A DNA stretch of 27,193 nucleotides from a virus (IMGVR_UViG_3300048886_001612:1-27193), one strand, 5' to 3'. Positions 3,277-16,897 are shown, counted from the first letter of the stretch. The notes: generated by a model not told the origin, from the sequence alone. Numbers and translations: made by a program.

Positions 3277-3576
3277 ATGGCAAGATTGCCCAGATCAATG
3301 GATTATGACCGATTAAAAGAACCAGTGGTTTTACTCAGTTATTGGTCACCCCGATACGGTACGGTTCATAAGATGCAATGCGATACCGATTTGGAATGGC
3401 GGGATTTAGTCCAAGGTGTGCCTGGTTATGAGCGTGAGTTGTACGAAGTGGGTCGGCGTAAGGTGGTGGCCCCCGACTATTGTCTCTATATCCTGATCGA
3501 ACGAGACAAGATGACCGAATTAAGACAGAAAAAATATGGCGAACAACGAGACAACCGAATCTTTTCGGTAGGATAA
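3277..3576 (+). CDS. Hypothetical protein, 99 aa (MARLPRSMDY…)
   Basis: Fills the TerL-portal gap. AGAGGAG RBS at 3264-3270 supports ATG 3277 over the track's 3139 start. Confidence 0.7.
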   Translation: MARLPRSMDYDRLKEPVVLLSYWSPRYGTVHKMQCDTDLEWRDLVQGVPGYERELYEVGRRKVVAPDYCLYILIERDKMTELRQKKYGEQRDNRIFSVG

Positions 3577-3580
3577 GCTG

Positions 3581-5017
3581 ATGGAATTTATAACTAATTA
3601 TCATGGCGATTACACCAGCTTCCAAAACGACTGGCAATTTTATATCCAAAGCTATGTTGGAGGCCGACAATACACCACCGATGCCAACATCTTTCAGCAT
3701 TTAAGGGAGACTGAACAAGATTACAACCTCCGCTTGAAACGGGCAGTCTACACCAATTACTGCCGTTCTGTGGTTGATTTGTACACCTCTTTCATCTTTG
3801 GGGTCGAAACCCATGTCATGCGAGATGTCGAGGCCGAATCATATCTGAACTTCCAACAAGATGTCGATTTGAGGGGCAACAATATCGACGATTTTATGCA
3901 ACAGGTCAGTACCTATGCCCAGATATTTGGCTTTTGTGGCATCTTGATCGACTCGCCGCCCCGTGATGACTCGATTTTGACCTTAAAAGATCAACAAGAT
4001 TCGGGGATCCGACCTTATCTGTGCGTTTATCAACCCCCAGATATTGTCAATTGGGCCTTGGATCGGTTTGGTCAATTGATTTGGGTCAGGTTGAAAGAGA
4101 ACAACCAAGAAAACGATGACCCGTTTGGCGATGAAGAAGAAACCACCCATTACCGGACTTTCACCCGAGACGAGTGGTTTTTGCATGACGACCAACAAGT
4201 GCTGATCGACTCCGACACCCATGGATTGGGCCGAGTGCCGTTTGTGTGTGCCTATTTCCAAAAGCACCCCCAATATCCGTTCGTCGGCTTGAGTCAATTG
4301 GTAGATATTGCCCCCATCAATCGACTTTTGGCCAATATCAACAGCTATATTGATGAGTTTGTCAGTAAACAGGCGTTCCCTTTCTTGGCTAGTAGTGAGA
4401 ACCCGATGATGCCGGACGGTCAAGAGCCAGAATCCATCATCAGTGCCAGCAACGTTTTTAATTATCCGCAAGGTGGTCAGCCACCAAGTTATGTCTCACC
4501 GCCAACTGACCCCGCCCAATTCATGCAGGATTATTCTGCCGACTATTTGATCCAGCAAATTTTAAGGGCGGCCCATTTGGATCATCGAGCCTTAGCCGAA
4601 CAGTCAGGGGTAGCCAAGCAATACGATTTCCACCAATTGAACCATGTACTGTCCAAGTTTAGCCGAAATCTGGAGATGGCCGAATTGCAAGTGATGGATA
4701 TTTATCACCGTTGGACAGGTCAAGAGTCGGAGCCCGTTCAGATTGATTATCCTGACAATTTTGAGATCGAAACCATCAGCCAAGCCTTAGCCAACAGCAA
4801 GTTGGTTCGAGAAATATTTGGAGATAAATCGCCGACTTTCACCAGCGAACATTTACGCCGTATGGCCCGTCGTTTGACACCCAAGCTAGAAGAGGGGTTG
4901 GCTGAAACCATCGCTGAAGAATTAGAAGAGTCAGCCACTTCAGATGCTCAAGCTCTGGCTTTTGATGAAGAGATGCAATACTTGACCAATCCCAGTGAGC
5001 CGATGGATGCCGTATAA
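3581..5017 (+). CDS. Portal protein
   Basis: 478 aa, after TerL. Motifs YNLRLKRAVYTNYCRSVVD, DVDLRGNNID, GFCGILIDSP, RPYL, IVNW, HGLGRVPFV and SGVAKQYDF are typical of SPP1-like/DUF4055-like portals. Confidence 0.9.
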   Translation: MEFITNYHGDYTSFQNDWQFYIQSYVGGRQYTTDANIFQHLRETEQDYNLRLKRAVYTNYCRSVVDLYTSFIFGVETHVMRDVEAESYLNFQQDVDLRGNNIDDFMQQVSTYAQIFGFCGILIDSPPRDDSILTLKDQQDSGIRPYLCVYQPPDIVNWALDRFGQLIWVRLKENNQENDDPFGDEEETTHYRTFTRDEWFLHDDQQVLIDSDTHGLGRVPFVCAYFQKHPQYPFVGLSQLVDIAPINRLLANINSYIDEFVSKQAFPFLASSENPMMPDGQEPESIISASNVFNYPQGGQPPSYVSPPTDPAQFMQDYSADYLIQQILRAAHLDHRALAEQSGVAKQYDFHQLNHVLSKFSRNLEMAELQVMDIYHRWTGQESEPVQIDYPDNFEIETISQALANSKLVREIFGDKSPTFTSEHLRRMARRLTPKLEEGLAETIAEELEESATSDAQALAFDEEMQYLTNPSEPMDAV

Positions 5018-5132
5018 GAAAATCACCCGAGGTAAAAACAAGGGCAAATACCGATCCAAAACGGGCCGGGTCATGACTTTGGGCAATATTAGAGCCTATT
5101 ATGCCAACAAGAAAACCAAAAAGAGCAAATGA
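5007..5132 (+). CDS. Small basic peptide, 41 aa (MPYKKITRGKNKGKYRSKTGRVMTLGNIRAYYANKKTKKSK)
   Basis: Translated by hand. It overlaps the portal stop, ends in an ATGA overlap with the MuF start and fills the gap exactly. 15 K/R and no D/E. Confidence 0.7.
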   Translation: MPYKKITRGKNKGKYRSKTGRVMTLGNIRAYYANKKTKKSK

Positions 5133-8100
5133 GCCTTAACGATTATCAAGAATCCGTTTTTAAGTCTCGGGCGATCCCTTACAAAGCCACCCAAGCCATT
5201 CAAGACCGGCAACTGATGGCTTTGAAGATGGCCACGGCTCAATTGACCGACTTGATCCAAGGCATTGCTGATAAAGGTGAAGGTGGCCAAGTCAATCGAG
5301 GCTTATTCTTGGCTAAAAAGCAAGCCATCCAAAACTTGATGGTTCAATTGGCCCAAGGCATGGGGCAAGACATCTCAGAATCAGTCTCAGCCGTAACCGA
5401 AGAGACCGCCGCTTTGATGCAAGAAGTCACTGACAAATTAGCCACCGATCAAGACCAAGAAGTCGATCTCAGCAATCTGGCTACTGTTCCCGAAACGGTG
5501 TTGCAAAACTATGTCCATCGTGCTGATAGTGAAGGCTTAAAAATCAGTCCTGACATTTGGGCTGGCAACCAAACGGCTTTGATTGAAAACCAAGTTTTAT
5601 CAGCCATCAGTCGTGGCCAAAGTGCCAAGTCATTAGCCCAAGATTTAGAGCAATTTATCAATGGTGGCTCCGTGGGCATGGGTCATAGTATCGCTTATAA
5701 GACCATGCGATTGGCCCGAACCGAGATCAATACAGCCTATCATGAAACCCGTCGCTTGAGTGCCATGGCCAGCCCAGTAGTGGCCGGGATGCAATGGAGA
5801 TTGAGCAACCGTCACCCGAAATGGGATATTTGCGATTTATTGGCTGATCAAGATTTGTATGGGTTGGGTCAAGGCGTTTACCCATCCGAACAATTGCCAC
5901 CCAAGCCACACCCGAACTGCATTTGTTACACCATGGACAAGTTGAGAGACCCTTCCGAATGGCAAGAGCCCAAGCCAATCATTAAGGTCAAGACCACGCC
6001 CAACTCTTTTTCACTTAACAATTTGGCTGATAGTTTGGCCACGGTCAAAGCTACTGACAATTACATCACCAAGCAATACCAAATTTTTGAGGCTTTGATG
6101 GATCGAACCATTGCTGATGCTGACAAGTATCCACCACCAGAGCCTTCAATGCCTGAAGCTCCATCAGCTCAACCTTCCCCCGATTGGTTAGAGGCCATCC
6201 CTGATGAAGCCTTTAACCAATGGTACGAAGATTTGGTCAGCCCGTATTCAAAGGCGGCGGGTGACAGCCAATTGGAAGATATCACTGGCTTTGCCATGTA
6301 TGACGTGATGACTGAAGCCACTTACAAAGAAATCGTCAAGGCCACAGCTTTGAAGGGCGAGGCCTTGACCCAAGATGAATTTGTAAATGTGTTCAAGAAG
6401 CATGATGAGAAGGATTGGAAAGGCAACAGCTACTATGATGGTGTGCTGAAAATGGCACTTCCCGGTGATGACACGATACTAGAATTGGCCAATGCTGACA
6501 TCGCCAAAGCGGCTGAAAACTTGGTCGGTTTGGCCGAAGCTGGAACTTTTGGGGTTGTCAAACCCAAAGCACCGACAGCTGATGTTGAGCCCACAACTCC
6601 ACCCCCAGAAGCGGATGTTGATAATTACGGGAAGCTCCAAGACGAATTGAGTTTCTACTTGCCAGAAGCTGTTTATAAAGATTTATTGTGGGAAGTTTCA
6701 TTGTGGGAAGTTTCAGCTATTCCAAGCGTTTTGCAAAATCCTGACAATTTGAAACAACTTTGGGCCTCAATAGCCCCCGACTATATAACTGATTTGGGTC
6801 AAACTGCGGCTGATTTTAATGCTATCAAAGACCATTTGTTGTCTTTAGTAGCTGACCAACCAAGCCCAACACCTCCAACACCAGAAGCGGATGTTGGCTG
6901 GCTAGATAACGTGCCCGAGCAATCTTTTTTGGATTATTACGATGGCGATTCAAGTAACCCCGATTTGGCCGAAGGGTTTACCATAATGGAGTTGATGGAG
7001 CCGAACACTTTCGAAAAAATTGTCAAAGATGCCATTACTAAAGGTGGAAAGTTGAGCCAAGAAGAGTTTGAAGCCTCTTTCAAAAAACATGATGAAAAAG
7101 ATTTCTCAGGCCAAACTTATTTTGATGGCACCATAGAAATGCAGGAGATGATGGGGGAGCCGTTTTTGGAGTTGGCGAATGTTGAGGTTGCTAAGACGGC
7201 TGAAAGTTTGATGAGTTCGGCCAAAGGTGGGGCTTTCAGCACACCTAAGCCAAGCCCAACCGTTGCCCTTGAAGACAAGGCACAGTATGACAAGTTGCAA
7301 GACCAATTGAGCTTTGACTTGCCAGAGGATGTTTATGTTTCTTTGTTAAAACAAGTACAAGCTGACAACTCAATCTTGCTTGACCCCCAAAACTTCCAAG
7401 ATAAATGGTACGGCTCAGATTCAAATGTGGGGGCCAAGTATATTCCGACCAGTGCTGATTTGTATAAGTTTGTTGACAGCTTGACCAGCACCGTACTTTC
7501 CCAACCAAGCCCTGCCCCTGCTCCTGAAGCTCCACCAGCCCCCAAGCCCTTTGACCTTACCCCCAACAATACAACGTCAGTTACGGTTGATTTGTTTGAT
7601 TTAGGGCCATTTGAGGGGCAAGTTAAGAAAGCCAAAGAGCAAGGATTCCCGATTGATACCAATCAATTGCAAATGGTCTCCAGTTTGGGTGGTAGCACTG
7701 GGGCCAAATTGGTCAAGAATGTTGACAATAATGAACAGTTCGTTTTCAAGCAAGGTGGCAATCAACTCCATTTGCGAGAAGAGATTGTTGCTGACTCTAT
7801 TTATCAAACATTCCAAGGCAAAAAGTCGGTCAATGTGCCAGAGTTTGAGGTCTACCAAGAAGACAATGGCGAATTGACCAAGTTGGCCAAGTATTTGGAT
7901 GATACGGTCAGTTTGGGTGATGTCTTGAATGGCACTTTCAGCAACAAAACAGTTACAGCTGACAAGATCAAAGCCAAAGTCCAACAGGGGTTCGTGTTGG
8001 ATGCAGTTTTAGGGAATTGGGATGTAGCCGGAACCGCATATGACAATATCTTAATAACCAAGCGGGGCAAAATTTATCGGGTAGACAACGGAGGAGCCTT

Positions 8101-10306
8101 GCGTTTTCAGAATCAAGGTCAAACCAAGGGCGGGGCTTTTGCCGACCAGCCTAACGAGTTGTGGAGCCTCTTAGACGCTAATATCAACCCTTCGGCGGCC
8201 AAGGTTTTCTCAGGCTTGGATTTAGCCGAGGTCAAAAAGCAAGCCAAGAGCCTTTACCGTCAACGAGACCAGATCCTAGACAATCCATTATTAGATGATG
8301 AATTGAAAAAGAAACTAGATAGAAGGTTGCAAGCCTTGAATGATCCTTTCTTTTGGCAACGGGCAGAGCGTGAATATGACCGCTTAGGTATCGCTACTGT
8401 GGCTCAAAAGAAAAAGGTGGATAGAGAGACGGTGGAAGCCTATCAAGAGCAAATGACGGGCGTGATGGCCGTTGCTGAGCAAGATTCCAAGCTAGGCCGA
8501 ATCGCCTTGGAGATTGACCAAGAAACTGTCGAAGGGCTGACTGGTAACATCCAAAAAAACTCAGATCGTCAAGGCCAAGAAAGCTATACCTTGGAGTTTA
8601 AGGTTACTCAAGCTAGTGATGCTAAATTCCAAAAAGCCGCCAAAGGATTGGGAGCCCAAAAAAAGAGTTGGGAATTTATTACCCGAGAGTACGACCAAGC
8701 TGATGGCGTTTGGAAGGATCTGGGCGTTGGGTCTCAATATCCAATTTCATTACTTGATACCTACATTTATCAAGATCCAGCCGGGGCTTACGAATTTAAG
8801 TATGTGTCGGGTGCAAGTGGTCAAAGGGCTATGCGAGGAACGACGAGAATTACCGTCAACGGCTCGTTGGACGATTTCAAGGCTCAACTACCACAAATCT
8901 TGTCTGACCTTCAGTTAGACCCCAACTTGTTGGCTCAACCAACCGAAACATATAAGACCAAGTTGAAGGCGGCCCAGATGCTACAACAATTCTTACCTAA
9001 CAAGATGTGGAAGGCTGGTTGGGATAAGCAATTCGCCAAGTCTAGCGATGAACAGGAGAGCCAAGAATTGATCGAATTGGCCCAAAAAGAGATCGCCATG
9101 GCGGCTGGAGTTTCAACCGATGAGGTTCAAAGATGGTTGGATGATACCAACATGGAGGAGGGCTTCTCTGGTTACAAGGTCAACACGGTCAAAAATAAGA
9201 ATTATCAAGATGCCATCCAAAAAGATATCTCCTATTTAACCCACAACATCAGCCCCGAGAATGTGGCTAGGGTTTTTTCGACCCAAGGCTCAGGACTAAT
9301 GTCAACCCGAAACCGTTTTAGCCGAGGCCTCACTGTCGGTGGGGCTTCCAGTGAAACTGACTTGCAGACTGGTGGTGCGGATAGTGCTTTTACCCGAGTG
9401 GTTAATAAGCAAACTGGTTCCATGGCACGGGTCGGTGGGTTGGGTGGCAATGTGATGTTGGTTTTGGACAAGCAATTGCTAAACCGAACCGATTGGTATG
9501 CCTACAATGCTGACATCTATGGTGGTACTGATTGGAAAAAATATGATCATGAATCAAACCGTAAGGGTGCGATCGAGTTGGGATCAATGGGGTCGACCAG
9601 TAATGAGGTCATGTTTCGGCAAGGGATACCAGAAAGTGCTGTCCAAGGCATTGTTTGTGCCGATAGTGAAACCAAAGATACATTGATGCGGGTATTGAAT
9701 AATGCGGGTATCACTCAAATCGGGTCGATGCCAATTTCTGATGAGACCATCCAAGTGGCATATAAGCAAGCTGAGACTGATTATTACAAAGACCCGGCAA
9801 CACTAAAAGATGCCAGCCGGTTGTTGAAACCTGAGCCCGAGGAGTCAATTGGGGTAGATAATGACAAGGTTATAGCTTTAAAAACCAGCTTGAAAGTGAC
9901 TGAAGAGTGGTATCAAGACGGCACATTGGACGAAGCGGCTTATCAAGCGGCCAAATCCGCTTTGGAGGGAGAGCTGGCGAAAGCTACCGGCACCCAAAAA
10001 GCCATCCCAGAGATCAATCTTGAATATTTCGATTCGGAGATAGAGCCCAAACTGAAGGGTTCAGCCAACAAAAAGAAGAAAATTAAAGAGGTTTATGCCT
10101 TGATCTCTGACGAATTAGAGACTTATGCCAGCCAAGCGGTCAACACGCCTAATTTTGTCAATGGCTCTGAAGCTGAAAAAGAGGAATATATCGAAGATTG
10201 GACAACTGAGTTTTTGGTTAGTGGCAAATACGGCGGTTCCATCTCAGGCGGCCAATTCTCAATCACTTTGAAAGCCGTTTTGGATGGCATGGGGCTTTTG
10301 AGCTAA
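5129..10306 (+). CDS. MuF (SPP1 gp7-like) minor head protein fused to duplicated modules, a PI3K/HipA-like kinase domain and an ADP-ribosyltransferase-like domain (polyvalent/polymorphic toxin-type)
   Basis: MuF motifs RLARTEINTAYHE, WRLS-x-x-H-x-x-x-DICD and PPKPHPNCICY, located right after the portal. Kinase motifs LGGSTGA, FVFK, REE, LGNWD, DNIL, RVDNGG (~7660-8110). ART-like motifs YLTHNIS…GLMS…GGADSAFTR…NEVMF…IP (~9230-9660). Confidence 0.85.
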   Translation: MSLNDYQESVFKSRAIPYKATQAIQDRQLMALKMATAQLTDLIQGIADKGEGGQVNRGLFLAKKQAIQNLMVQLAQGMGQDISESVSAVTEETAALMQEVTDKLATDQDQEVDLSNLATVPETVLQNYVHRADSEGLKISPDIWAGNQTALIENQVLSAISRGQSAKSLAQDLEQFINGGSVGMGHSIAYKTMRLARTEINTAYHETRRLSAMASPVVAGMQWRLSNRHPKWDICDLLADQDLYGLGQGVYPSEQLPPKPHPNCICYTMDKLRDPSEWQEPKPIIKVKTTPNSFSLNNLADSLATVKATDNYITKQYQIFEALMDRTIADADKYPPPEPSMPEAPSAQPSPDWLEAIPDEAFNQWYEDLVSPYSKAAGDSQLEDITGFAMYDVMTEATYKEIVKATALKGEALTQDEFVNVFKKHDEKDWKGNSYYDGVLKMALPGDDTILELANADIAKAAENLVGLAEAGTFGVVKPKAPTADVEPTTPPPEADVDNYGKLQDELSFYLPEAVYKDLLWEVSLWEVSAIPSVLQNPDNLKQLWASIAPDYITDLGQTAADFNAIKDHLLSLVADQPSPTPPTPEADVGWLDNVPEQSFLDYYDGDSSNPDLAEGFTIMELMEPNTFEKIVKDAITKGGKLSQEEFEASFKKHDEKDFSGQTYFDGTIEMQEMMGEPFLELANVEVAKTAESLMSSAKGGAFSTPKPSPTVALEDKAQYDKLQDQLSFDLPEDVYVSLLKQVQADNSILLDPQNFQDKWYGSDSNVGAKYIPTSADLYKFVDSLTSTVLSQPSPAPAPEAPPAPKPFDLTPNNTTSVTVDLFDLGPFEGQVKKAKEQGFPIDTNQLQMVSSLGGSTGAKLVKNVDNNEQFVFKQGGNQLHLREEIVADSIYQTFQGKKSVNVPEFEVYQEDNGELTKLAKYLDDTVSLGDVLNGTFSNKTVTADKIKAKVQQGFVLDAVLGNWDVAGTAYDNILITKRGKIYRVDNGGALRFQNQGQTKGGAFADQPNELWSLLDANINPSAAKVFSGLDLAEVKKQAKSLYRQRDQILDNPLLDDELKKKLDRRLQALNDPFFWQRAEREYDRLGIATVAQKKKVDRETVEAYQEQMTGVMAVAEQDSKLGRIALEIDQETVEGLTGNIQKNSDRQGQESYTLEFKVTQASDAKFQKAAKGLGAQKKSWEFITREYDQADGVWKDLGVGSQYPISLLDTYIYQDPAGAYEFKYVSGASGQRAMRGTTRITVNGSLDDFKAQLPQILSDLQLDPNLLAQPTETYKTKLKAAQMLQQFLPNKMWKAGWDKQFAKSSDEQESQELIELAQKEIAMAAGVSTDEVQRWLDDTNMEEGFSGYKVNTVKNKNYQDAIQKDISYLTHNISPENVARVFSTQGSGLMSTRNRFSRGLTVGGASSETDLQTGGADSAFTRVVNKQTGSMARVGGLGGNVMLVLDKQLLNRTDWYAYNADIYGGTDWKKYDHESNRKGAIELGSMGSTSNEVMFRQGIPESAVQGIVCADSETKDTLMRVLNNAGITQIGSMPISDETIQVAYKQAETDYYKDPATLKDASRLLKPEPEESIGVDNDKVIALKTSLKVTEEWYQDGTLDEAAYQAAKSALEGELAKATGTQKAIPEINLEYFDSEIEPKLKGSANKKKKIKEVYALISDELETYASQAVNTPNFVNGSEAEKEEYIEDWTTEFLVSGKYGGSISGGQFSITLKAVLDGMGLLS
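6182..7500 (+). repeat. Diverged internal tandem duplication (two copies of about 200-230 aa) within the MuF fusion
   Basis: Paired segments: DWLEAIPDEAF/GWLDNVPEQSF; YKEIVK/FEKIVK; FKKHDEKDWKG/FKKHDEKDFSG; LELANADIAKAAENL/LELANVEVAKTAESL; YGKLQDELSFYLPEAVY/YDKLQDQLSFDLPEDVY. Pro-rich linkers separate them. Confidence 0.9.
6685..6714 (+). repeat. Perfect 15-bp in-frame tandem duplication (attgtgggaagtttc x2; LWEVS LWEVS)
   Basis: Read directly from the sequence. Confidence 0.9.
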
Positions 10307-10686
10307 TGTCAGTGGCTTGGATGGTTTATGACAGTAGTTGGGCCGATGGGGAGGAGCCATGGTTGGCTTTTTATACCCAATTCTGGCACCCAAACGGGCA
10401 AAGTTTGAGGTTGGAGGATATCGGCAAAGACAAGATCGAACTGGATGGCGGGTTCCGGTGGGGGGCCAGTGGGGTCGAGTTGAATGGCTCGGTCTTGCAA
10501 CGTCAAGATGATGGGAGTTGGATCCAAACCCAAAAAAAGACAGGTCGGGTCTTGGCCTATCAATATTTGACTGTTGAGCTATATAACGAGTTCTTCCCGC
10601 ACGTTTTCCCCCAATCATTTGGGAGTACTGAAGATTTGCAAGCCTATATCAATCAATACAATCGGACTAATTTTGGATTGAAATGA
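10306..10686 (+). CDS. Hypothetical Trp-rich protein, 126 aa; candidate immunity/partner of the MuF C-terminal effector
   Basis: TAATG coupling to the MuF fusion. The function is inferred from position only. Confidence 0.65.
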   Translation: MSVAWMVYDSSWADGEEPWLAFYTQFWHPNGQSLRLEDIGKDKIELDGGFRWGASGVELNGSVLQRQDDGSWIQTQKKTGRVLAYQYLTVELYNEFFPHVFPQSFGSTEDLQAYINQYNRTNFGLK

Positions 10687-11573
10687 CAACTAATCAATTG
10701 ATACTTGACCAATCGCCCAAACAGGCTTTGGATCAATTTTTGCAAAAATATCAAGAAGTCGGGGGGCAAAACATTGAGGAAATCAAAAAAATAGCTTTGG
10801 CTACCATTCGGCACTTGAACGGCAACAAAGATGTCAGGTTTGAAATGGCTAAGACGAGGGCTTTAGAAAAACGATGGTATCAATCATTGACTAAAGGCCA
10901 GCCCGATTGGGATGTCTATGCCTCCGATTTGTACATGGCAGAGTTGTGGGGGTGTTGGATTGTTTATTCTCGATCTTATTTGCGGAACATCATTTCGCCG
11001 ACCTCAATGGTCAATCATAGTGTCTTGACCGAAATGGGGCCGATTAAAACGGTGGTCGATTTAGGTTGTGGATTCGGCTTGACCACCGCCGCATGGAAAC
11101 AGATTTGCCCAAAAGCTCAAGTCTATGGAACTAATTTGGACGGAACTATACAGATGAAAATGGCCCATCGGATGGCGAAGGAATACAAATTCCAAATGGT
11201 TTCGGAGTTAGATCAAATAGAGCCAAATGCTGATGTGGTTTTTGCCTCAGAGTATTTTGAACACATTCCCACGCCTGTCCAGCATTTAAGGAATGTTCTC
11301 AAGAAGCTGAAGCCACAGAACATGTTGATTGCTAACGCTTTCGGTACTCAAGCGATTGGCCATTTCCCTCGCTACCGAGTCAATGGTCAAAATTTGGATG
11401 GCAAGCAAACCTCAACAGCTTTCAATGCAGAACTAAAAAAGTTTGGGTTTGCCAAAGTAAAAACCCAATTATGGAATAATCGGCCCAATTTTTGGAAAAG
11501 GGGTCGGGTTCCAATCACTCAAAATGGCCGACGGGCCTTAAACGACGATCGACGGATCGAAAACGGAGGATAA
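10683..11573 (+). CDS. Class I SAM-dependent methyltransferase
   Basis: Motif I VVDLGCGFG, followed by DVVFASEYFEHI. ATGA overlap with the upstream gene. Confidence 0.88.
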   Translation: MTTNQLILDQSPKQALDQFLQKYQEVGGQNIEEIKKIALATIRHLNGNKDVRFEMAKTRALEKRWYQSLTKGQPDWDVYASDLYMAELWGCWIVYSRSYLRNIISPTSMVNHSVLTEMGPIKTVVDLGCGFGLTTAAWKQICPKAQVYGTNLDGTIQMKMAHRMAKEYKFQMVSELDQIEPNADVVFASEYFEHIPTPVQHLRNVLKKLKPQNMLIANAFGTQAIGHFPRYRVNGQNLDGKQTSTAFNAELKKFGFAKVKTQLWNNRPNFWKRGRVPITQNGRRALNDDRRIENGG

Positions 11574-11577
11574 TAAC

Positions 11578-12444
11578 ATGGCTGAAAATATAGAAACTAC
11601 CACCGAAGAAACTACTTCTGCGGAAGTCTCAAGCCCGACTGACGGGTCGCAAAACACGGCACAGGATTCAAAACCTGTATTCAATGACCAACAGCAACAC
11701 TGGATAGATAACCAGATCATCCCCAAGATTTTGGCCCAAGCCAAACGGCAACAAACGGCTGAAGCTAAGTCGAAAGGCTTAGTCAAAGACGAACGGGAAG
11801 AATTGGAGATATTCAGAGTTCAGCAACGTGAGCAAGCTGAGCAACAAGCCTTGGAAGAGCAACGCAAGTTGGAAGAACAGGGCGAGTATAAGCGGATCAT
11901 CGAAGAAAAGGATACCCAAGTCCAGAAAGCAATGGCCGACGCTCAACAAGCGGTCAGCCTATTGCAACAAGAACGGGAATCCAATTTCATCGAGAACCAA
12001 TTGAGTTCAGCTATCGCTAGAGTCGAGGGAGGCATTATCCCTGAGATGGTGCATATCGCCAAGCAGATGATGAAAGCTGGCGTACCGATCATCCCGGATT
12101 CTGACAACCACTACACTATTCAAGCCCACAACAACGATGGCAATGGGAGCTTAGAGGTGCAGGTGGTTGATGGGAACGGTAATCGGCCTTTCAACTCTAA
12201 CGGCGAGTATATGAGCCTAGAGGAAGCAGTAACTGGCTTCGTCGGACGGCATCCCAGTTTCCAACCAGCCAATTTTAGGGGCGGTGGTTCAGGTGCCAGC
12301 GGCGGTTCTTCGCTCAACACGGTGCAGAGTTTGCAAAAAGAGCTTGACGACTTGACGGCCAAAGCCCAGAAATCGGGCCGGTCAGCTGATCGGCAAGCCA
12401 TGTTGAAAAAAACGAGAGAATTAAAGGCGGCTCAACAAACATGA
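11578..12444 (+). CDS. Capsid scaffolding protein
   Basis: Directly upstream of the MCP. Acidic N-terminus, Q/E-rich coiled coil (LEEQGEYKRI), Gly-rich GGGSGASGG near the C-terminus. GGAGG RBS. Confidence 0.8.
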   Translation: MAENIETTTEETTSAEVSSPTDGSQNTAQDSKPVFNDQQQHWIDNQIIPKILAQAKRQQTAEAKSKGLVKDEREELEIFRVQQREQAEQQALEEQRKLEEQGEYKRIIEEKDTQVQKAMADAQQAVSLLQQERESNFIENQLSSAIARVEGGIIPEMVHIAKQMMKAGVPIIPDSDNHYTIQAHNNDGNGSLEVQVVDGNGNRPFNSNGEYMSLEEAVTGFVGRHPSFQPANFRGGGSGASGGSSLNTVQSLQKELDDLTAKAQKSGRSADRQAMLKKTRELKAAQQT

Positions 12445-12465
12445 CACCGCCAAAGGGAGCATTAA

Positions 12466-13611
12466 ATGGCTTTTTCAGGACGAGCGACTTATGATAACGA
12501 TGACCTGATTGCTGAAGATGTTAGCAATTTGGTATCCACTATTTCACCTTTTGAAACCCCATTGTTAGACTTTTTGGGCGATGCTGGTTCACCAGCTACC
12601 AACGTCTTGCATGAATGGGTCGAAGATTCACTTTCACCCGGATCGTTAATCAATTCCAGTGCCCTCGCCAGTGCCACGGCTAATACGGCTTTTCGAGTTA
12701 ATGGCACCGGCAATGAACTCCAAGTAGGCGATATTTTGCGGATGGTTCCCGGCAATATCATCGCTGGCGAGGAGCTGATGCAAGTGGTTACCGTTCATGG
12801 TGCCAATTCAATTACTGTCTCCCGAGCGTTTGGTGGTGTGGGTGCCAACTCAGCCGCCGCTGGTGGCACTTTGGAATTGCTTAGTAACGCCAGCTTGGAA
12901 GGAGCAGATGTGTCGGGCGATATTGGCATGAACCGTACCCGAAACTTCAACTTCGTCCAGCAGTTCCAAAAGCCGATCGAGGTTTCTGACACCGAACGGG
13001 CGGTCAACAATTTGGGTGGCATTGATGACGAATATGCTTACCAGCTAGAAAGTCGAACCAAAGAGATTCTGCGTGACCTAGAAAAAGCAGTCATCCTTGG
13101 CGCGGCCGGTGGTAACAGTTTCGGTTCATCTACGGCTTATCGTAGCATGAAAGGGATTTGGCGATTTATCACTACTAACCAAAACACCACTACCGCCGCC
13201 CTAGACGATAGCTTCTTAGGCGATAGCCTAGTCAAATCGGCTTGGGATAACGGTGGTGATGATGTTGACGTGATCATCGCTGACGCTCAATGGAAACGTG
13301 CCATTGATGGGTTGATTGATACCCGGATTAGAGTAACCACTGACGAAGATACTTTGCGAACCGAAGTTACCTATTATGAGTCTAGCTTCGGCCGTCAAGC
13401 CATCTTGCCTCCATCCCGACATATGCCTTACAAGTCAGCCATGGCTTTGGCTTCTGATCGGATCGAGGTGGTGCCGTTACAAGGCCGATCTTTCCAACAC
13501 CAAGAACTAGCCAAGACCGGTCATGCCACCAAAGGCGTGGTGGTTGGCGAGTACACAGTGGCTGTCATGAACGAATCTGGCCATTCGCGTGGCGTAGATA
13601 CTGACGCTTAA
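12466..13611 (+). CDS. Major capsid protein (HK97 fold, DUF5309/SU10-type) with an inserted beta-rich domain
   Basis: Motifs EDVSNLVSTISPFETPLL, HEWVEDSL, NFVQQFQKPIEVSDT, EYAYQ…EILRDLEKAVI, RSMKGI, LAKTG…GEYT. Confidence 0.9.
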   Translation: MAFSGRATYDNDDLIAEDVSNLVSTISPFETPLLDFLGDAGSPATNVLHEWVEDSLSPGSLINSSALASATANTAFRVNGTGNELQVGDILRMVPGNIIAGEELMQVVTVHGANSITVSRAFGGVGANSAAAGGTLELLSNASLEGADVSGDIGMNRTRNFNFVQQFQKPIEVSDTERAVNNLGGIDDEYAYQLESRTKEILRDLEKAVILGAAGGNSFGSSTAYRSMKGIWRFITTNQNTTTAALDDSFLGDSLVKSAWDNGGDDVDVIIADAQWKRAIDGLIDTRIRVTTDEDTLRTEVTYYESSFGRQAILPPSRHMPYKSAMALASDRIEVVPLQGRSFQHQELAKTGHATKGVVVGEYTVAVMNESGHSRGVDTDA

Positions 13612-13652: not shown

Positions 13653-13913
13653 ATGACCAGATTAGAGAACCAGGATTTCAACACTTTGAGCCAATTCATG
13701 CTACACAATATCCATCGGCCCTTCAACCCCCAATTTTTGCTCAGGTTCAAGAAGGCCTTACCTGTTTTGTTGAAAGATTATGAGAAGCTGGTGGACGAAA
13801 ATGGACAATTATTGAAAGAGAACCAAAAACTGAAAAAACAAGTTGAAGACCTACAACCAGAGTTGTCAAGCCTACAACCAGAGTTGTCAAACCAGCAGGA
13901 GGTGGCCGAATGA
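13653..13913 (+). CDS. Hypothetical coiled-coil protein, 86 aa
   Basis: GAAGGAG RBS upstream, heptad-like C-terminus, ATGA overlap with the downstream GT gene. Confidence 0.7.
   Translation: MTRLENQDFNTLSQFMLHNIHRPFNPQFLLRFKKALPVLLKDYEKLVDENGQLLKENQKLKKQVEDLQPELSSLQPELSNQQEVAE
13850..13890 (+). repeat. 20-bp direct repeat with 21-bp period (cctacaaccagagttgtcaa x2; LQPELSS LQPELSN)
   Basis: Read directly from the sequence. It adds exactly one heptad to the coiled coil. Confidence 0.88.
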
Positions 13914-16897
13914 AATACAATATCGCCTTCTTTTGTAATAGTGTGCCGTTATCAGCCGAAACCATACAGTTACAGAAATCCTTGGGTGGTAGCGAAACGG
14001 CTTTGATCTACATGGCCAACGCTTTAGCTGATCGAGGCCACAGTGTTACCGTTTTCACCCAAATGACCGATCAAGACCAACAAGGTTTTTATAACAATGT
14101 TAAATGGGTCGATCTGGAGGGTATGGCTGGTGCTTGCCAAGCTATCGAATGGGATGTTTTTATCAGCCAGCGTCATCCTTCCGTTTTAGAGAAACCGATC
14201 CGAGCCAAATATCGGGCTTTGTGGGTGCAAGATGTGCTGATGCCCTATTCCAAAGCGGCTCTAACCTCGACCTTGTGGCAAACCGATCAAATCTACTATG
14301 TCAGCGAATGGCATTGCGACAATTATGAGAACCTTCTGCCTGACGGAGCTGACAGGTTACGGTTCGTGACCAAAAACGGCATTGATCTGGCTACGGTGGA
14401 TGCCAATACTGATGAAGATAATCGAAATACCGGCCAATTGATCTATATTTCACGTCCAGAACGCGGCCTGTTCCCGTTACTGCAAATCTTTCCCCAAATC
14501 AAAGCTCAACGTCCATGGCTGGAGTTGAAAGTTTGCCGCTATTATTCGATGTACGAAAACAATGCCGAGGTGAAACAGATTTGTCAACAAGCGGATCGGA
14601 TGGTGGCCCAAACCGAGGGCGTTGAATATTTGGGCAACTTGAACAAAGCTGACCTCTATCGAGCTATCAGTCAAAGTGCTTTGATGGTCTATCCCGGGGT
14701 GCCAGATTTCGACGAGACTTCCTGTATCGCCGCCTTAGAAGCCCAAGCCTGCCGGACACCGTTGGTGGCTAGCCGAAAAGGTGGCTTGATCGAGACTTTG
14801 GCCCACGGAGCTGGAGCCTTGATCGGTGGGGATGCTTACAGCGACGGTTATCAACAAGAATTTATCAATCAAACTTTTGATTTGCTGGACGATCCAGAAC
14901 GGTACACCCAAGCCCAACAGGTCGGGCGTGATTGGGTGGAAAGCCAGTACCAATACAAAACCATCGCCACCGAATGGGAAAAGAACCTAGACCTGTTTTT
15001 TGAAACCCGATTCAACACTTATAAAAGCCAAATCTTTGACAATTTATTGCATCATGACGATTTTGCTACCGCTCATCATATCGTTGAGCATAAAGAAATC
15101 AAAGAGGCTCAAGCTCTTGACTTGTATGGGGCTTTGAGCCAAGACCATACCGAAGAAGATTACGATGTGATGATGTTAGACCCGGAGGAGGAGGAGCAAG
15201 CAGTGGAGGATGGCCGCCATTTCCGGTTAGAAACAGTCTTGCAATTGCTAGACCCCAAACGGTCAGGCTTGGAACCGAAATCTATCCTTGATTATGGGTG
15301 CGGTGGTGGAATTTTTGCTTCAGCTTTGCAACGTATGTTTCCAAAAGCGAATGTTCTTGGCTTAGATTTCAGTGGCGGGATCGTGGACAAAGGCAACCAA
15401 TTTATTCGGAGCCAAGAGTGGAACGATAGCAAGGTGCCATTGATTTTGGAAGCCGATTTGGTGAACCAAGGCACTTTGCAAGAGGTCAAGTCTGATGGTG
15501 AGACTTATATGAGTCCTGAGCAGAAATTTGACCTGATCTTGGTGGGCGAATTATTGGAACACTATATCGAGCCAATGGAACTGATCTCAGCCTTGGATGA
15601 TGTCTTGGCTGAAGGTGGCACTATTTGCTGGACGGTGCCCAACGGCCCCTTCGTGGAATTGGCCGATACCGAGCGGGAACGAACCGAACGTACCCACCGA
15701 ATCCATTGGGAATATAACACAGTTAAAGAGGTTTTTGGTGGCAAAGCCGATTTTGATATCCGTTACATCTGCATCAATAATTCGACCGGCATTCGCGGTT
15801 TGGATAAGGGCCATTATGTATTCAGCCACAAAAAAGAAGGCCAATACGGCGAAATCAATTTTGACAAGAAATACAAGTTGACCCGGCCTTACCAAAAAGT
15901 TTCAGCTTGCCTGATCGCTCGTAATAACGAGAAAGATATTGCTCGGTGTTTGGATTCCATCCACCAAGTAGCTGATGAAATAATCATTGCTGATAATGGG
16001 TCAACTGATTCGACCTTGGAGATAGCGGAAAAGTATGGGGCCAAGATAATCAACTTGCCAGAAAAATGGCCACAGGCTCCAGAATGGGCACCTGCCCCGG
16101 GCAATTTCTCATGGATGAGAAACGAATCGGTCAAGCCAGCCACTGGTGATTGGATCTTGTGGATTGATACTGATGAGGAGTTGAGGAACGGCCATTTGTT
16201 AGGCCAATATCTTCAGTCCAGACTGTTTGACGGATTTGTCTTGCGACAAAACCATTTGATGGTCGATGTTGACACCAAATCGCATGACACCCCAGTCCGA
16301 GTCTATCGGGCAGACCAAGGCTTCGAATTTTATGGTTGCATCCACGAACACGCCCATAAATCTTTGAACCAGCCGATCGAACCGTCATTAGAGTTGGACA
16401 AGACTGACATTATTCATTACGGCTATGTGACCGAAGATATCCGAAGATACAAGTGCATGACCAGAAACATGATGTTGATGAAATTGGATCGGGCCGTTCA
16501 TCCAGGCCGGTTGTTGGGTTGGTGTTTGTTAGCCCGAGAGTATTTGAATTTGGCCAGTTGGGAGAAGCAAGACGATCCACGAGCCCCATTCAGCCAAATG
16601 ACCGAACGCAGATTAAGGGAGGTGGTCAGAATATTTCATGATCCAGATTTGGATTTATCCAACCCAGAAGGCCGGTATTACAAGATCATCTTCCCATTAT
16701 ATCAGTCGGCGTTGAAATGTTTGGATGCTGGCATCCCAGTCGAAGTTGATGTCAAGGTCAGCCAAAACGGGCAAGGCTTCCGCTTTTTGGATCAAGAAGA
16801 TCTGGAGCGTCATCTGAATTTTAACTTGCACGGCATGACCAGCAAATTGCCACCGCAAGGCCGGAACAAAACCTATTTGACACAGGTGGAAGGATGA
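13910..16897 (+). CDS. Tri-domain GT4 (GT-B) glycosyltransferase / SAM methyltransferase / GT2 (GT-A) glycosyltransferase
   Basis: GT4: LGGSETALIYMANALADRGHSVTVF and E-x7-E motif ETSCIAALE…PLVAS…GGLIE. MTase: ILDYGCGGG, FDLILVGELLEH. GT2: VSACLIARNNEKDIARCLDS, DNGSTD, WILWIDTDE, IHEH, IIHYGY. Confidence 0.92.
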   Translation: MKYNIAFFCNSVPLSAETIQLQKSLGGSETALIYMANALADRGHSVTVFTQMTDQDQQGFYNNVKWVDLEGMAGACQAIEWDVFISQRHPSVLEKPIRAKYRALWVQDVLMPYSKAALTSTLWQTDQIYYVSEWHCDNYENLLPDGADRLRFVTKNGIDLATVDANTDEDNRNTGQLIYISRPERGLFPLLQIFPQIKAQRPWLELKVCRYYSMYENNAEVKQICQQADRMVAQTEGVEYLGNLNKADLYRAISQSALMVYPGVPDFDETSCIAALEAQACRTPLVASRKGGLIETLAHGAGALIGGDAYSDGYQQEFINQTFDLLDDPERYTQAQQVGRDWVESQYQYKTIATEWEKNLDLFFETRFNTYKSQIFDNLLHHDDFATAHHIVEHKEIKEAQALDLYGALSQDHTEEDYDVMMLDPEEEEQAVEDGRHFRLETVLQLLDPKRSGLEPKSILDYGCGGGIFASALQRMFPKANVLGLDFSGGIVDKGNQFIRSQEWNDSKVPLILEADLVNQGTLQEVKSDGETYMSPEQKFDLILVGELLEHYIEPMELISALDDVLAEGGTICWTVPNGPFVELADTERERTERTHRIHWEYNTVKEVFGGKADFDIRYICINNSTGIRGLDKGHYVFSHKKEGQYGEINFDKKYKLTRPYQKVSACLIARNNEKDIARCLDSIHQVADEIIIADNGSTDSTLEIAEKYGAKIINLPEKWPQAPEWAPAPGNFSWMRNESVKPATGDWILWIDTDEELRNGHLLGQYLQSRLFDGFVLRQNHLMVDVDTKSHDTPVRVYRADQGFEFYGCIHEHAHKSLNQPIEPSLELDKTDIIHYGYVTEDIRRYKCMTRNMMLMKLDRAVHPGRLLGWCLLAREYLNLASWEKQDDPRAPFSQMTERRLREVVRIFHDPDLDLSNPEGRYYKIIFPLYQSALKCLDAGIPVEVDVKVSQNGQGFRFLDQEDLERHLNFNLHGMTSKLPPQGRNKTYLTQVEG

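Follow-up and report, generated by a model that had tools for sequence, protein, structure and literature searches.

A MuF head protein joining a predicted kinase to a DarT-fold ADP-ribosyltransferase-like domain belongs to a widespread phage family

Results

A large MuF gene and a coupled small gene lie downstream of the portal gene

The window analyzed here, the whole 27,193-nucleotide stretch IMGVR_UViG_3300048886_001612:1-27193, comes from a virus, and its IMG/VR record is linear and 57% complete. Genes on one strand (+, as are all features below) read in the order terminase, portal, a 1725-amino acid (aa) protein, a 126-aa protein, methyltransferase, scaffold, major capsid protein, and tail genes. 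The portal gene (3581..5017; phrog_145, E 1.1e-72) is directly 5' of the open reading frame (ORF) called for the 1725-aa protein (5129..10306). A portal gene next door upstream is the context that defines MuF genes. The start of the 126-aa ORF (10306..10686) overlaps the stop of the large ORF as TAATG. With regard to a temperate lifestyle, a criterion for MuF polymorphic toxins, no integrase was found among the 22 ORFs scanned in this 57% complete record; relatives sit within bacterial chromosomes.

The large protein begins with a MuF/head-morphogenesis domain (aa 1-281, 5129..5971), to which PHROG head-morphogenesis families match with E values of 5e-42 to 2e-12. phrog_1657 covers aa 33-274 (E 4.8e-42) and phrog_115 covers aa 66-281, while the Pfam family PF04233 scores 20.4 bits (E 9e-4), below its cut-off of 29.6. 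Next come two copies of an acidic repeat, aa 353-582 (6185..6874), which has Pro-rich linkers on either side, and aa 591-797 (6899..7519). The copies are 45% identical (90 of 202 columns), and their alignment score of 365 compares with 37.8 +/- 6.0 (maximum 66) in 200 shuffles. A predicted kinase, a conserved middle domain, and a predicted ADP-ribosyltransferase-like (ART) domain follow, and the protein ends in an acidic tail (aa 1546-1725, 9764..10303). The initial annotation had proposed this layout, with MuF at about aa 1-280, duplicated modules, an acidic tail, and a TAATG-coupled small ORF, and every element of it was borne out. The tail is indeed acidic (net charge -12 over 180 aa), although the repeats are more so (-26 and -24).

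As judged by sequence comparison, both the repeated modules and the acidic tail are lineage-specific. Among 192 stored proteins, the repeat was found in one, the 1725-aa protein itself, and no homolog of the tail was found. Alignments of the repeats and tail with the insert and tail of an ortholog were no better than shuffle level.

That ortholog (P0002 at locus L007; 1986 aa) keeps the MuF domain, kinase, middle domain, ART, and a TAATG-coupled small gene. Identity between the two proteins is 67% in MuF, 51% in the kinase, 39% in the middle domain, and 48% in the ART; the ortholog's small gene encodes 134 aa and is 45% identical to the 126-aa protein. Because the ortholog has the same architecture, a chimeric assembly does not account for the fusion. 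In addition, a 38.6-kb contig from one run (X1) covers 3500-12500 unbroken with one letter different, but it may be the source of the same DNA and is thus not independent. A second run (X2) covers the stretch in part, with 21 of 23 pieces agreeing to at least 99%. Twelve small-share runs were left out as evidence of habitat. The SAM methyltransferase gene at 10683-11573 was considered as a further member of the system and rejected, because the L007 locus passes from the small gene directly to the scaffold gene.

The protein contains a predicted CtkA/HipA/PI4K-fold kinase and a DarT-fold ADP-ribosyltransferase-like domain

The kinase domain (aa 837-1072, 7637..8344) was assigned from fold matches, Foldseek, and conservation. 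In a model of aa 830-1560 (731 aa; pLDDT 84, built from 37 sequences), it aligned with CtkA at Z 14.0 (rmsd 4.3, 208 residues) and with PI4KIIa (Z 12.8), CotH (12.5), HipA (12.5), and HipT (12.1); CtkA was also the best Foldseek match, and the helical C-lobe was modeled at high confidence. The motifs are a GGSTGA loop, K874, E885, N963-W-D965, N973, and D986. Dereplication at 80% reduced 141 cassettes to 65, of which 64 retain K874 and all retain D965 and D986; divergent members of the family have NHDGH and IDKG. Although no Pfam family matched the kinase above cut-off, its predicted fold and the Lys, Glu, Asp, and Asp residues place it in the CtkA/HipA/PI4K-like superfamily.

The middle domain (aa 1094-1351, 8408..9181) is an alpha/beta domain in the model, and a family profile built without the 1725-aa protein matches it with E 2e-10. 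It was considered as an active CYTH/TTM enzyme, but resembles such folds only weakly (Z 4-6.3). The high pTM (0.89) of a joint model of the middle domain and ART (aa 1094-1545, 452 aa; pLDDT 89, 53 sequences) suggests that the two pack against each other.

The ART domain (aa 1355-1539, 9191..9745) was recognized by fold, profile, and motifs (H1372, S1407, D1411, TGGA, F1421-T-R1423, R1453, D1455, D1462, and N1492-E1493). In the 731-aa model it aligned with DarT1 at Z 13.1 (rmsd 3.6, 168 residues) and with DarT2 proteins at Z 11.7-12.4. In the 452-aa model, four DarTs gave Z 9.5-10.8 (DarT1 10.8), followed by Tpt1 (7.0), OspC3 (5.9), and CopC (5.6). The best four VIA matches and the best eight Foldseek matches were all DarT1 or DarT2. 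The ART profile reached E 6e-5 against the best of 14 DarTs, with 8 under 0.05, compared with E 0.26 against OspC. In a profile alignment of low probability, H1372, GLMS, D-S-A-F, and N-E1493 fall on the H, GILS, DYVPF, and AE of DarT. Pfam DarT (PF14487) scored 17.9 bits, below its cut-off of 22.5. Net charge did not separate the ART from DarT. PF18760 (ART-PolyVal) did not match the protein at E up to 1, nor did Pfam ankyrin repeats. By its predicted fold, then, the ART is DarT-like and not of the T4 Alt/VIP2 type, so its substrate could be protein or nucleic acid. The VIP2 matches seen in one search trace to the C-terminal regions of other proteins in the family and not to this one. Both catalytic assignments of the initial annotation, a kinase-like and an ART-like domain, thus held up in the models, each with its motifs intact, and the ART assignment was narrowed to the DarT fold.

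E1493, D1411, D1462, F1421, T1422, and S1407 are kept in 65 of the 65 dereplicated cassettes and H1372 in 57; position 1419 is Tyr in 46, comparable to Y71 of DarT2. This near invariance of the motif residues, like that in the kinase, argues for two active enzymes. The NAD-binding loop of DarT contains an essential arginine (R52/R51); for DarT1, R52 is described as essential in the available text of PMC11543638. By sequence, no conserved Arg lies in the corresponding region (between G1400 and D1418) of the 65 cassettes, and the invariant R1423 or R1453 could stand in for it spatially. The motif spacing H1372-39-D1411-10-F1421-41-D1462 is like that of OspC, H143-34-D177-11-F188-43-D231, in which D177 and D231 are reported as the catalytic bases of OspC3 (PMC11598138, in part); for CopC, an H-F-E triad and essential D172 and D230 are reported (PMC9239266, in part). 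The likeness to OspC is one of motif spacing only (Z 5.9, profile E 0.26); a language-model feature match to OspC/CopC reached 0.92, but with 156 of 256 shared, under the guide value of 170. One PF06128 match (L269) was dropped, since no OspC-like motif could be seen in it by eye.

Matches of the ART in the viral library include baculovirus and iridovirus proteins. The DarT-related ORF28 family is placed in these virus groups in the available text of PMC9503650, and we infer that the matches are members of it. When the protein or its profiles were compared with the sequences of PDB chains, neither a kinase nor a DarT relative turned up. PADLOC gave no match for the protein and none that recurred in 53 family members.

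The kinase and the ART are paired in a widespread family

The combination of a kinase with a DarT-fold ART is a widespread family and not a one-off. With the cassette as query, 4561 cluster representatives matched at E of 0.001 or less, via either domain. Among stored proteins with a DarT-fold ART, 72 of 74 have the kinase, but the query behind this count included both domains, a bias that we removed by searching with only the ART. On viral contigs, where 80 of 172 loci formed 42 clusters, the kinase was in the same ORF in 35 clusters, one further, truncated cluster matched in part, and six clusters had no kinase. In GTDB (80 of 90 loci), the kinase was in the same ORF in 69 of 80, and MuF, kinase, middle domain, and ART occurred together in 50 of 80. 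Among the GTDB hosts are Desulfobacterota, Bacillota, Acidobacteriota, Gammaproteobacteria, Verrucomicrobiota, and Saccharibacteria; a good number of these genomes are bins whose host assignment is possibly unreliable. Scanning viral contigs with a single sequence yielded nothing, and looking for longer proteins with a single ART sequence yielded three matches, one of them the protein itself. We also considered orphan ART cassettes, but took the 68 short stand-alone proteins, mostly on short contigs, as likely fragments.

The setting beside the portal gene is common in the family. A portal gene is the upstream neighbor in 15 of 22 upstream-gene clusters, and PHROG 6577, of unknown function, spans MuF to the middle domain in one subfamily. 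In Saccharibacteria, chromosomal copies of the cassette and small gene occur without MuF or portal, so the cassette can work without a head anchor.

Homologs with swapped C-termini, whose existence the initial annotation had suggested as a check, were found. In a kinase-pattern search of viral loci (the best 80 of 378, ranked against this cassette), the kinase was followed by an ART or ART-like domain in 74 of 80. Five types fill this slot: VIP2/Alt-type (17), DarT-fold (10), ART-PolyVal (1), an R-S-E/ExE-motif family (42), and a GYD-motif domain (4). The 42-locus family is unnamed and has an invariant R, S-x-S, and E-N-E. The calls for the last two types, 46 of the 74, are by motif only and had no confirmation in Pfam or PDB searches. 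Three of the six loci without an ART after the kinase end at the locus edge.

The order, kinase then ART, is nearly fixed (181 of 191 stored kinase proteins), and exceptions occur in both directions. The kinase is found without an ART at L061/L063 and L082, and the ART without a kinase in the six viral clusters above and in gp15 of phage Pan1, which has MuF, the middle domain, and the ART. Among other deposited phages, Escherichia phage ECML-606-1 and Pseudomonas phage Dolphis have the kinase with a VIP2-type ART, DSL-LC01 has the kinase, middle domain, and DarT-fold ART, and Forza has a kinase gene 3' of the portal gene and an ART two genes further. Prophages with the kinase and a DarT-fold ART are present in cultured strains, for example Syntrophus buswellii, Desulfosarcina alkanivorans, and Ruminococcus sp. 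AF41-9. Many proteins of the family also contain Nudix domains.

The small downstream gene tracks the ART

A closely spaced ORF lies 3' of 137 of 171 ART ORFs, and 120 of these encode 100-174 aa. Three families (F1-F3) make up most of the small ORFs. Profiles of F1-F3, built from ART loci, matched at none of 73 kinase-only loci and still matched at ART loci without a kinase. Thus, the small gene tracks the ART and not the kinase. Each family clusters on the ART tree; because kin share labels, this indicates linkage, not co-evolution. Among 62 downstream representatives, none matched a DarG macrodomain, NADAR, or an immunity family, and one matched PTPS.

The ART of the 1725-aa protein sits in the clade with all 19 F2 rows. 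The 126-aa protein itself is a weak member of F2 (E 0.003-0.004, hhalign probability 9-12%), with other families at E 0.04 or worse, and by eye it shares with F2 the motif LT..YN...F.S.EDL. It had no Pfam match, no feature match, and no ESM Atlas structure match above TM 0.5 by query. Because small proteins of this kind are seen only beside this ART (none at the 73 kinase-only loci), the 126-aa protein is probably an inhibitor of the ART.

Discussion

We propose, with somewhat less than even confidence, that the 1725-aa protein is injected and modifies host proteins through its kinase and its ART, and that the 126-aa protein silences the ART. The protein would be packaged in a few copies in the head, via MuF, and would enter the host along with the genome. 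There, ahead of phage gene expression, host proteins would be targets of phosphorylation by the predicted kinase and of ADP-ribosylation, likely at arginine, by the predicted DarT-fold ART, the purpose being host takeover or the disarming of defenses. In the cell producing virions, the coupled 126-aa protein would bind and silence the ART. Packaging and injection are proposed because of the precedents of MuF/gp7 proteins and T4 Alt. The setting beside the portal gene, the conserved motifs of both domains, the recurrence of the kinase-ART pair, and the small ORFs that track the ART all fit the proposal. A protein target is favored because Alt/VIP2-type enzymes, which modify proteins according to the available text of PMC5512222, can take the place of this ART after the kinase; the OspC-like spacing of its His, Phe, and two invariant Asp, and the lack by sequence of a conserved loop Arg, point the same way. 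Other findings speak against the proposal: in fold and sequence the ART lies clearly nearer to DarT, which modifies DNA, than to OspC (Z of 9.5-10.8 against 5.9), R1423 or R1453 could take the role of DarT's arginine, the 126-aa protein joins F2 only weakly, and the Saccharibacteria copies have neither MuF nor portal. In addition, a protein of 1725 aa would have to be unfolded or cleaved to traverse the tail, and we identified no processing site in it.

The likeness to DarT allows a different substrate. It is possible, though on balance unlikely, that the injected ART acts as DarT does and stalls replication by ADP-ribosylating ssDNA (or RNA) bases, either of the host or of a phage that competes for it; at the same level of doubt, the small protein would then block the ART by binding, in place of an enzymatic DarG. 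The uniformly DarT best matches in VIA and Foldseek, the alignment of the His, GLMS, D-S-A-F, and Glu with DarT motifs, the Tyr at position 1419 in 46 of 65 cassettes, and the matches in baculovirus and iridovirus groups, where the DarT-related ORF28 family is placed (PMC9503650, in part), all fit such an activity. However, the 62 downstream representatives include no DarG or NADAR, no conserved loop arginine is seen by sequence, PF14487 remains below its cut-off, and a DNA-marking enzyme that enters with the genome would presumably endanger that genome. We consider it quite unlikely that there is no injection and that the protein works inside the cell that makes the virions, either in a lysogen or at a late stage of infection, protecting head assembly from host defenses or excluding other phages, and equally so that MuF merely ties it to the portal. 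Such a role is named as an alternative for head-gene ARTs in the available text of PMC9503650, it would suit the chromosomal copies in Saccharibacteria that lack MuF, and a prophage ART, Bxa, is described as antibacterial and host-directed, with two immunity proteins (PMC11699363, in part). Yet MuF is retained in 50 of 80 GTDB loci (80 of 90), and the candidate inhibitor is tightly coupled and made simultaneously, which argues that the activity is unwanted in the producer.

The pairing itself might reflect a relay, in which the kinase phosphorylates the ART, turning it on after entry, or creates a phospho-acceptor for it. The near-fixed order of the two (74 of the best 80 of 378 loci; 181 of 191 stored kinase proteins) and the Nudix domains in many family proteins are consistent with a relay, but five unrelated ART types fill the slot and each domain occurs without the other (the ART in six of 42 viral clusters and Pan1 gp15, the kinase at L061/L063 and L082), and we regard this explanation as improbable. 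It is more improbable still, to the point of being nearly negligible, that both domains are remnants devoid of activity, serving the head as structural elements or spacers. Their best matches to curated families do fall below cut-off, but the residues at catalytic positions are invariant in 65 divergent copies while inserts and tails are not conserved.

Beyond the proposal of an injected kinase and ART that modify host proteins, a broader reading is conceivable but doubtful. Phages of many bacterial phyla might share a virion-borne kinase and ART module controlled by new inhibitor families, the ART being switched on or complemented at injection by its own kinase. The ART might then be a phage-side relative of DarT with OspC-like twin aspartates, either a DNA-marking enzyme used against the host or a phage forerunner of the arginine ADP-riboxanases.

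MuF-ART fusions have already been published, and so have phage kinases and polyvalent proteins. In the open-access main text that our literature search covered, we found no MuF protein with a CtkA/HipA-type kinase, no near-fixed kinase-ART pair, and no DarT-fold ART on a head protein. PMC7824862 does not mention protein kinase, HipA, MuF, CtkA, or PI3K. The initial annotation did not recognize this architecture as characterized; the family turned out to be widespread (kinase in 69 of 80 GTDB loci, from 80 of 90) but was not found in the literature covered. The family bears on what MuF proteins carry at injection, because it provides a defined cassette in which both active sites can be mutated, along with a candidate inhibitor and members among deposited phages. 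If the enzymes are active, a single injected protein would unite two post-translational modifications, phages would be using a fold so far characterized as an anti-phage weapon, and PHROG 6577 and three unnamed families of small proteins would acquire a function.

Several known systems resemble parts of this protein. DarT1 and DarT2 (PDB 8BAQ, 7OMU, 7OMV, 7YK3) are the closest solved folds and share the beta-1 His and the Glu at the catalytic position. In contrast to DarTG, the ART here is inside a phage head protein, has no DarG or NADAR among the 62 downstream representatives, shows no conserved loop Arg by sequence, and has two invariant Asp beyond DarT's set. The arginine ADP-riboxanases OspC3 and CopC resemble the ART in the spacing of H...D...F...D...E, but the structural match is low (Z 5.6-5.9), the profile match is not significant, there are no ankyrin repeats here, and the host is bacterial, not eukaryotic. 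The kinase shares its predicted fold and catalytic Lys, Glu, Asp, and Asp with CtkA, HipA/HipT, CotH, and PI4K-type kinases; unlike HipBA, it is in a phage head context without HipB, and its neighbors are a portal gene and a small ORF. The T7 kinase gp0.7 is an early gene product and not a head protein. It disarms defenses including DarTG1, according to the available text of PMC13645617. T4 Alt is the precedent for host takeover by an ART packaged in the head (PMC5512222, in part), but it is of the R-S-E class. Whereas Alt and gp0.7 are separate proteins of different phages, both activities are predicted here on one protein.

The polyvalent proteins described by Iyer 2017 (PMC5512222) also combine several host-modifying domains in one polypeptide that is predicted to be injected, and ARTs and kinases are both listed. 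In the available text of that paper, the polyvalent kinase clade lacks the C-terminal subdomain and the polyvalent ART has H-Y-D, whereas the kinase modeled here retains its entire C-lobe, like that of CtkA/HipA, and the ART has H...E, a predicted DarT fold, and an invariant Glu. By these comparisons the protein does not appear to be a member of the DarTG, HipBA, OspC, or polyvalent-kinase groups.

The MuF polymorphic toxins (Jamet 2017, PMC5576092; Zhang 2012, PMC3482391; each in part) have a MuF N-terminus encoded after a portal gene, a C-terminal enzyme, a small downstream ORF, and swappable C-termini. MuF-toxin fusions with downstream immunity genes had been cited as the precedent in the initial annotation, and MuF-ART fusions are indeed in print, for example the MuF-VIP2 fusions of Microbacterium phages (PMC7302621, in part). 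The word "kinase" does not occur in the available text of Jamet 2017. Here there are two enzymes in a fixed cassette, and the ART is DarT-fold, not VIP2. With its MuF domain, upstream portal gene, variable C-terminal enzyme, and downstream ORF of <150 aa, the 1725-aa protein has the testable features of MuF polymorphic toxins, and by our analysis it is a variant of the MuF effectors.

The predicted kinase (CtkA/HipA/PI4K fold) is followed most often by a domain family without a name, which occupies this position in 42 of the 80 loci that ranked best, among 378, against the window cassette (e.g., loci L008, L011, L014, and L019; alignment A7). Members of this family share an invariant arginine (in LxRTE), an S-x-S motif, and E-N-E (alignment A7), and the family has its own coupled gene of about 100 aa. 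Searches of Pfam and PDB sequences with the family gave no match. Judging from sequence, we think that it is probably a new ADP-ribosyltransferase (ART) of the R-S-E class.

The giant proteins P0047, P0048, P0103, and P0011 have the kinase domain in two to five tandem copies, and in L016, L018, L021, L232, and L236 the large gene is apparently split, with the kinase or MuF part on separate ORFs. Many family members (P0003, P0068, L110, L150, L248) contain Nudix domains between MuF and the kinase or before them, and Dolphis and ECML-606-1 have Nudix genes downstream of their kinase-bearing proteins. Nudix enzymes are capable of trimming ADP-ribose.

In the window, a SAM methyltransferase gene (10683-11573) has an ATGA overlap with the 126-aa small gene and is missing from the corresponding place in the ortholog locus, L007. 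This gene was inserted recently among those of the head operon. Directly upstream of the terminase gene, a TET-associated glycosyltransferase (PF20691, E 1e-37) and a nucleotide-sugar epimerase (96-1930) could function in DNA base glycosylation. Directly downstream of the major capsid gene is a 995-aa fusion of glycosyltransferase 1, a methyltransferase, and glycosyltransferase 2 (13910-16897); L007 carries one too, and the window fusion might glycosylate the capsid.

Saccharibacteria bins (loci L172, L178, L173, L174, L176, and L179) contain the kinase, the middle region, and the DarT-fold ART, together with a small gene of family F2, without MuF or portal. This arrangement spans 8033-11345 in L172, close to a type III restriction locus, and 8186-11526 in L178, where it adjoins genes for enolase, UvrC, and a solute-binding protein. 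The MuF-less cassette is possibly an effector of phage origin that was taken over by these epibionts.
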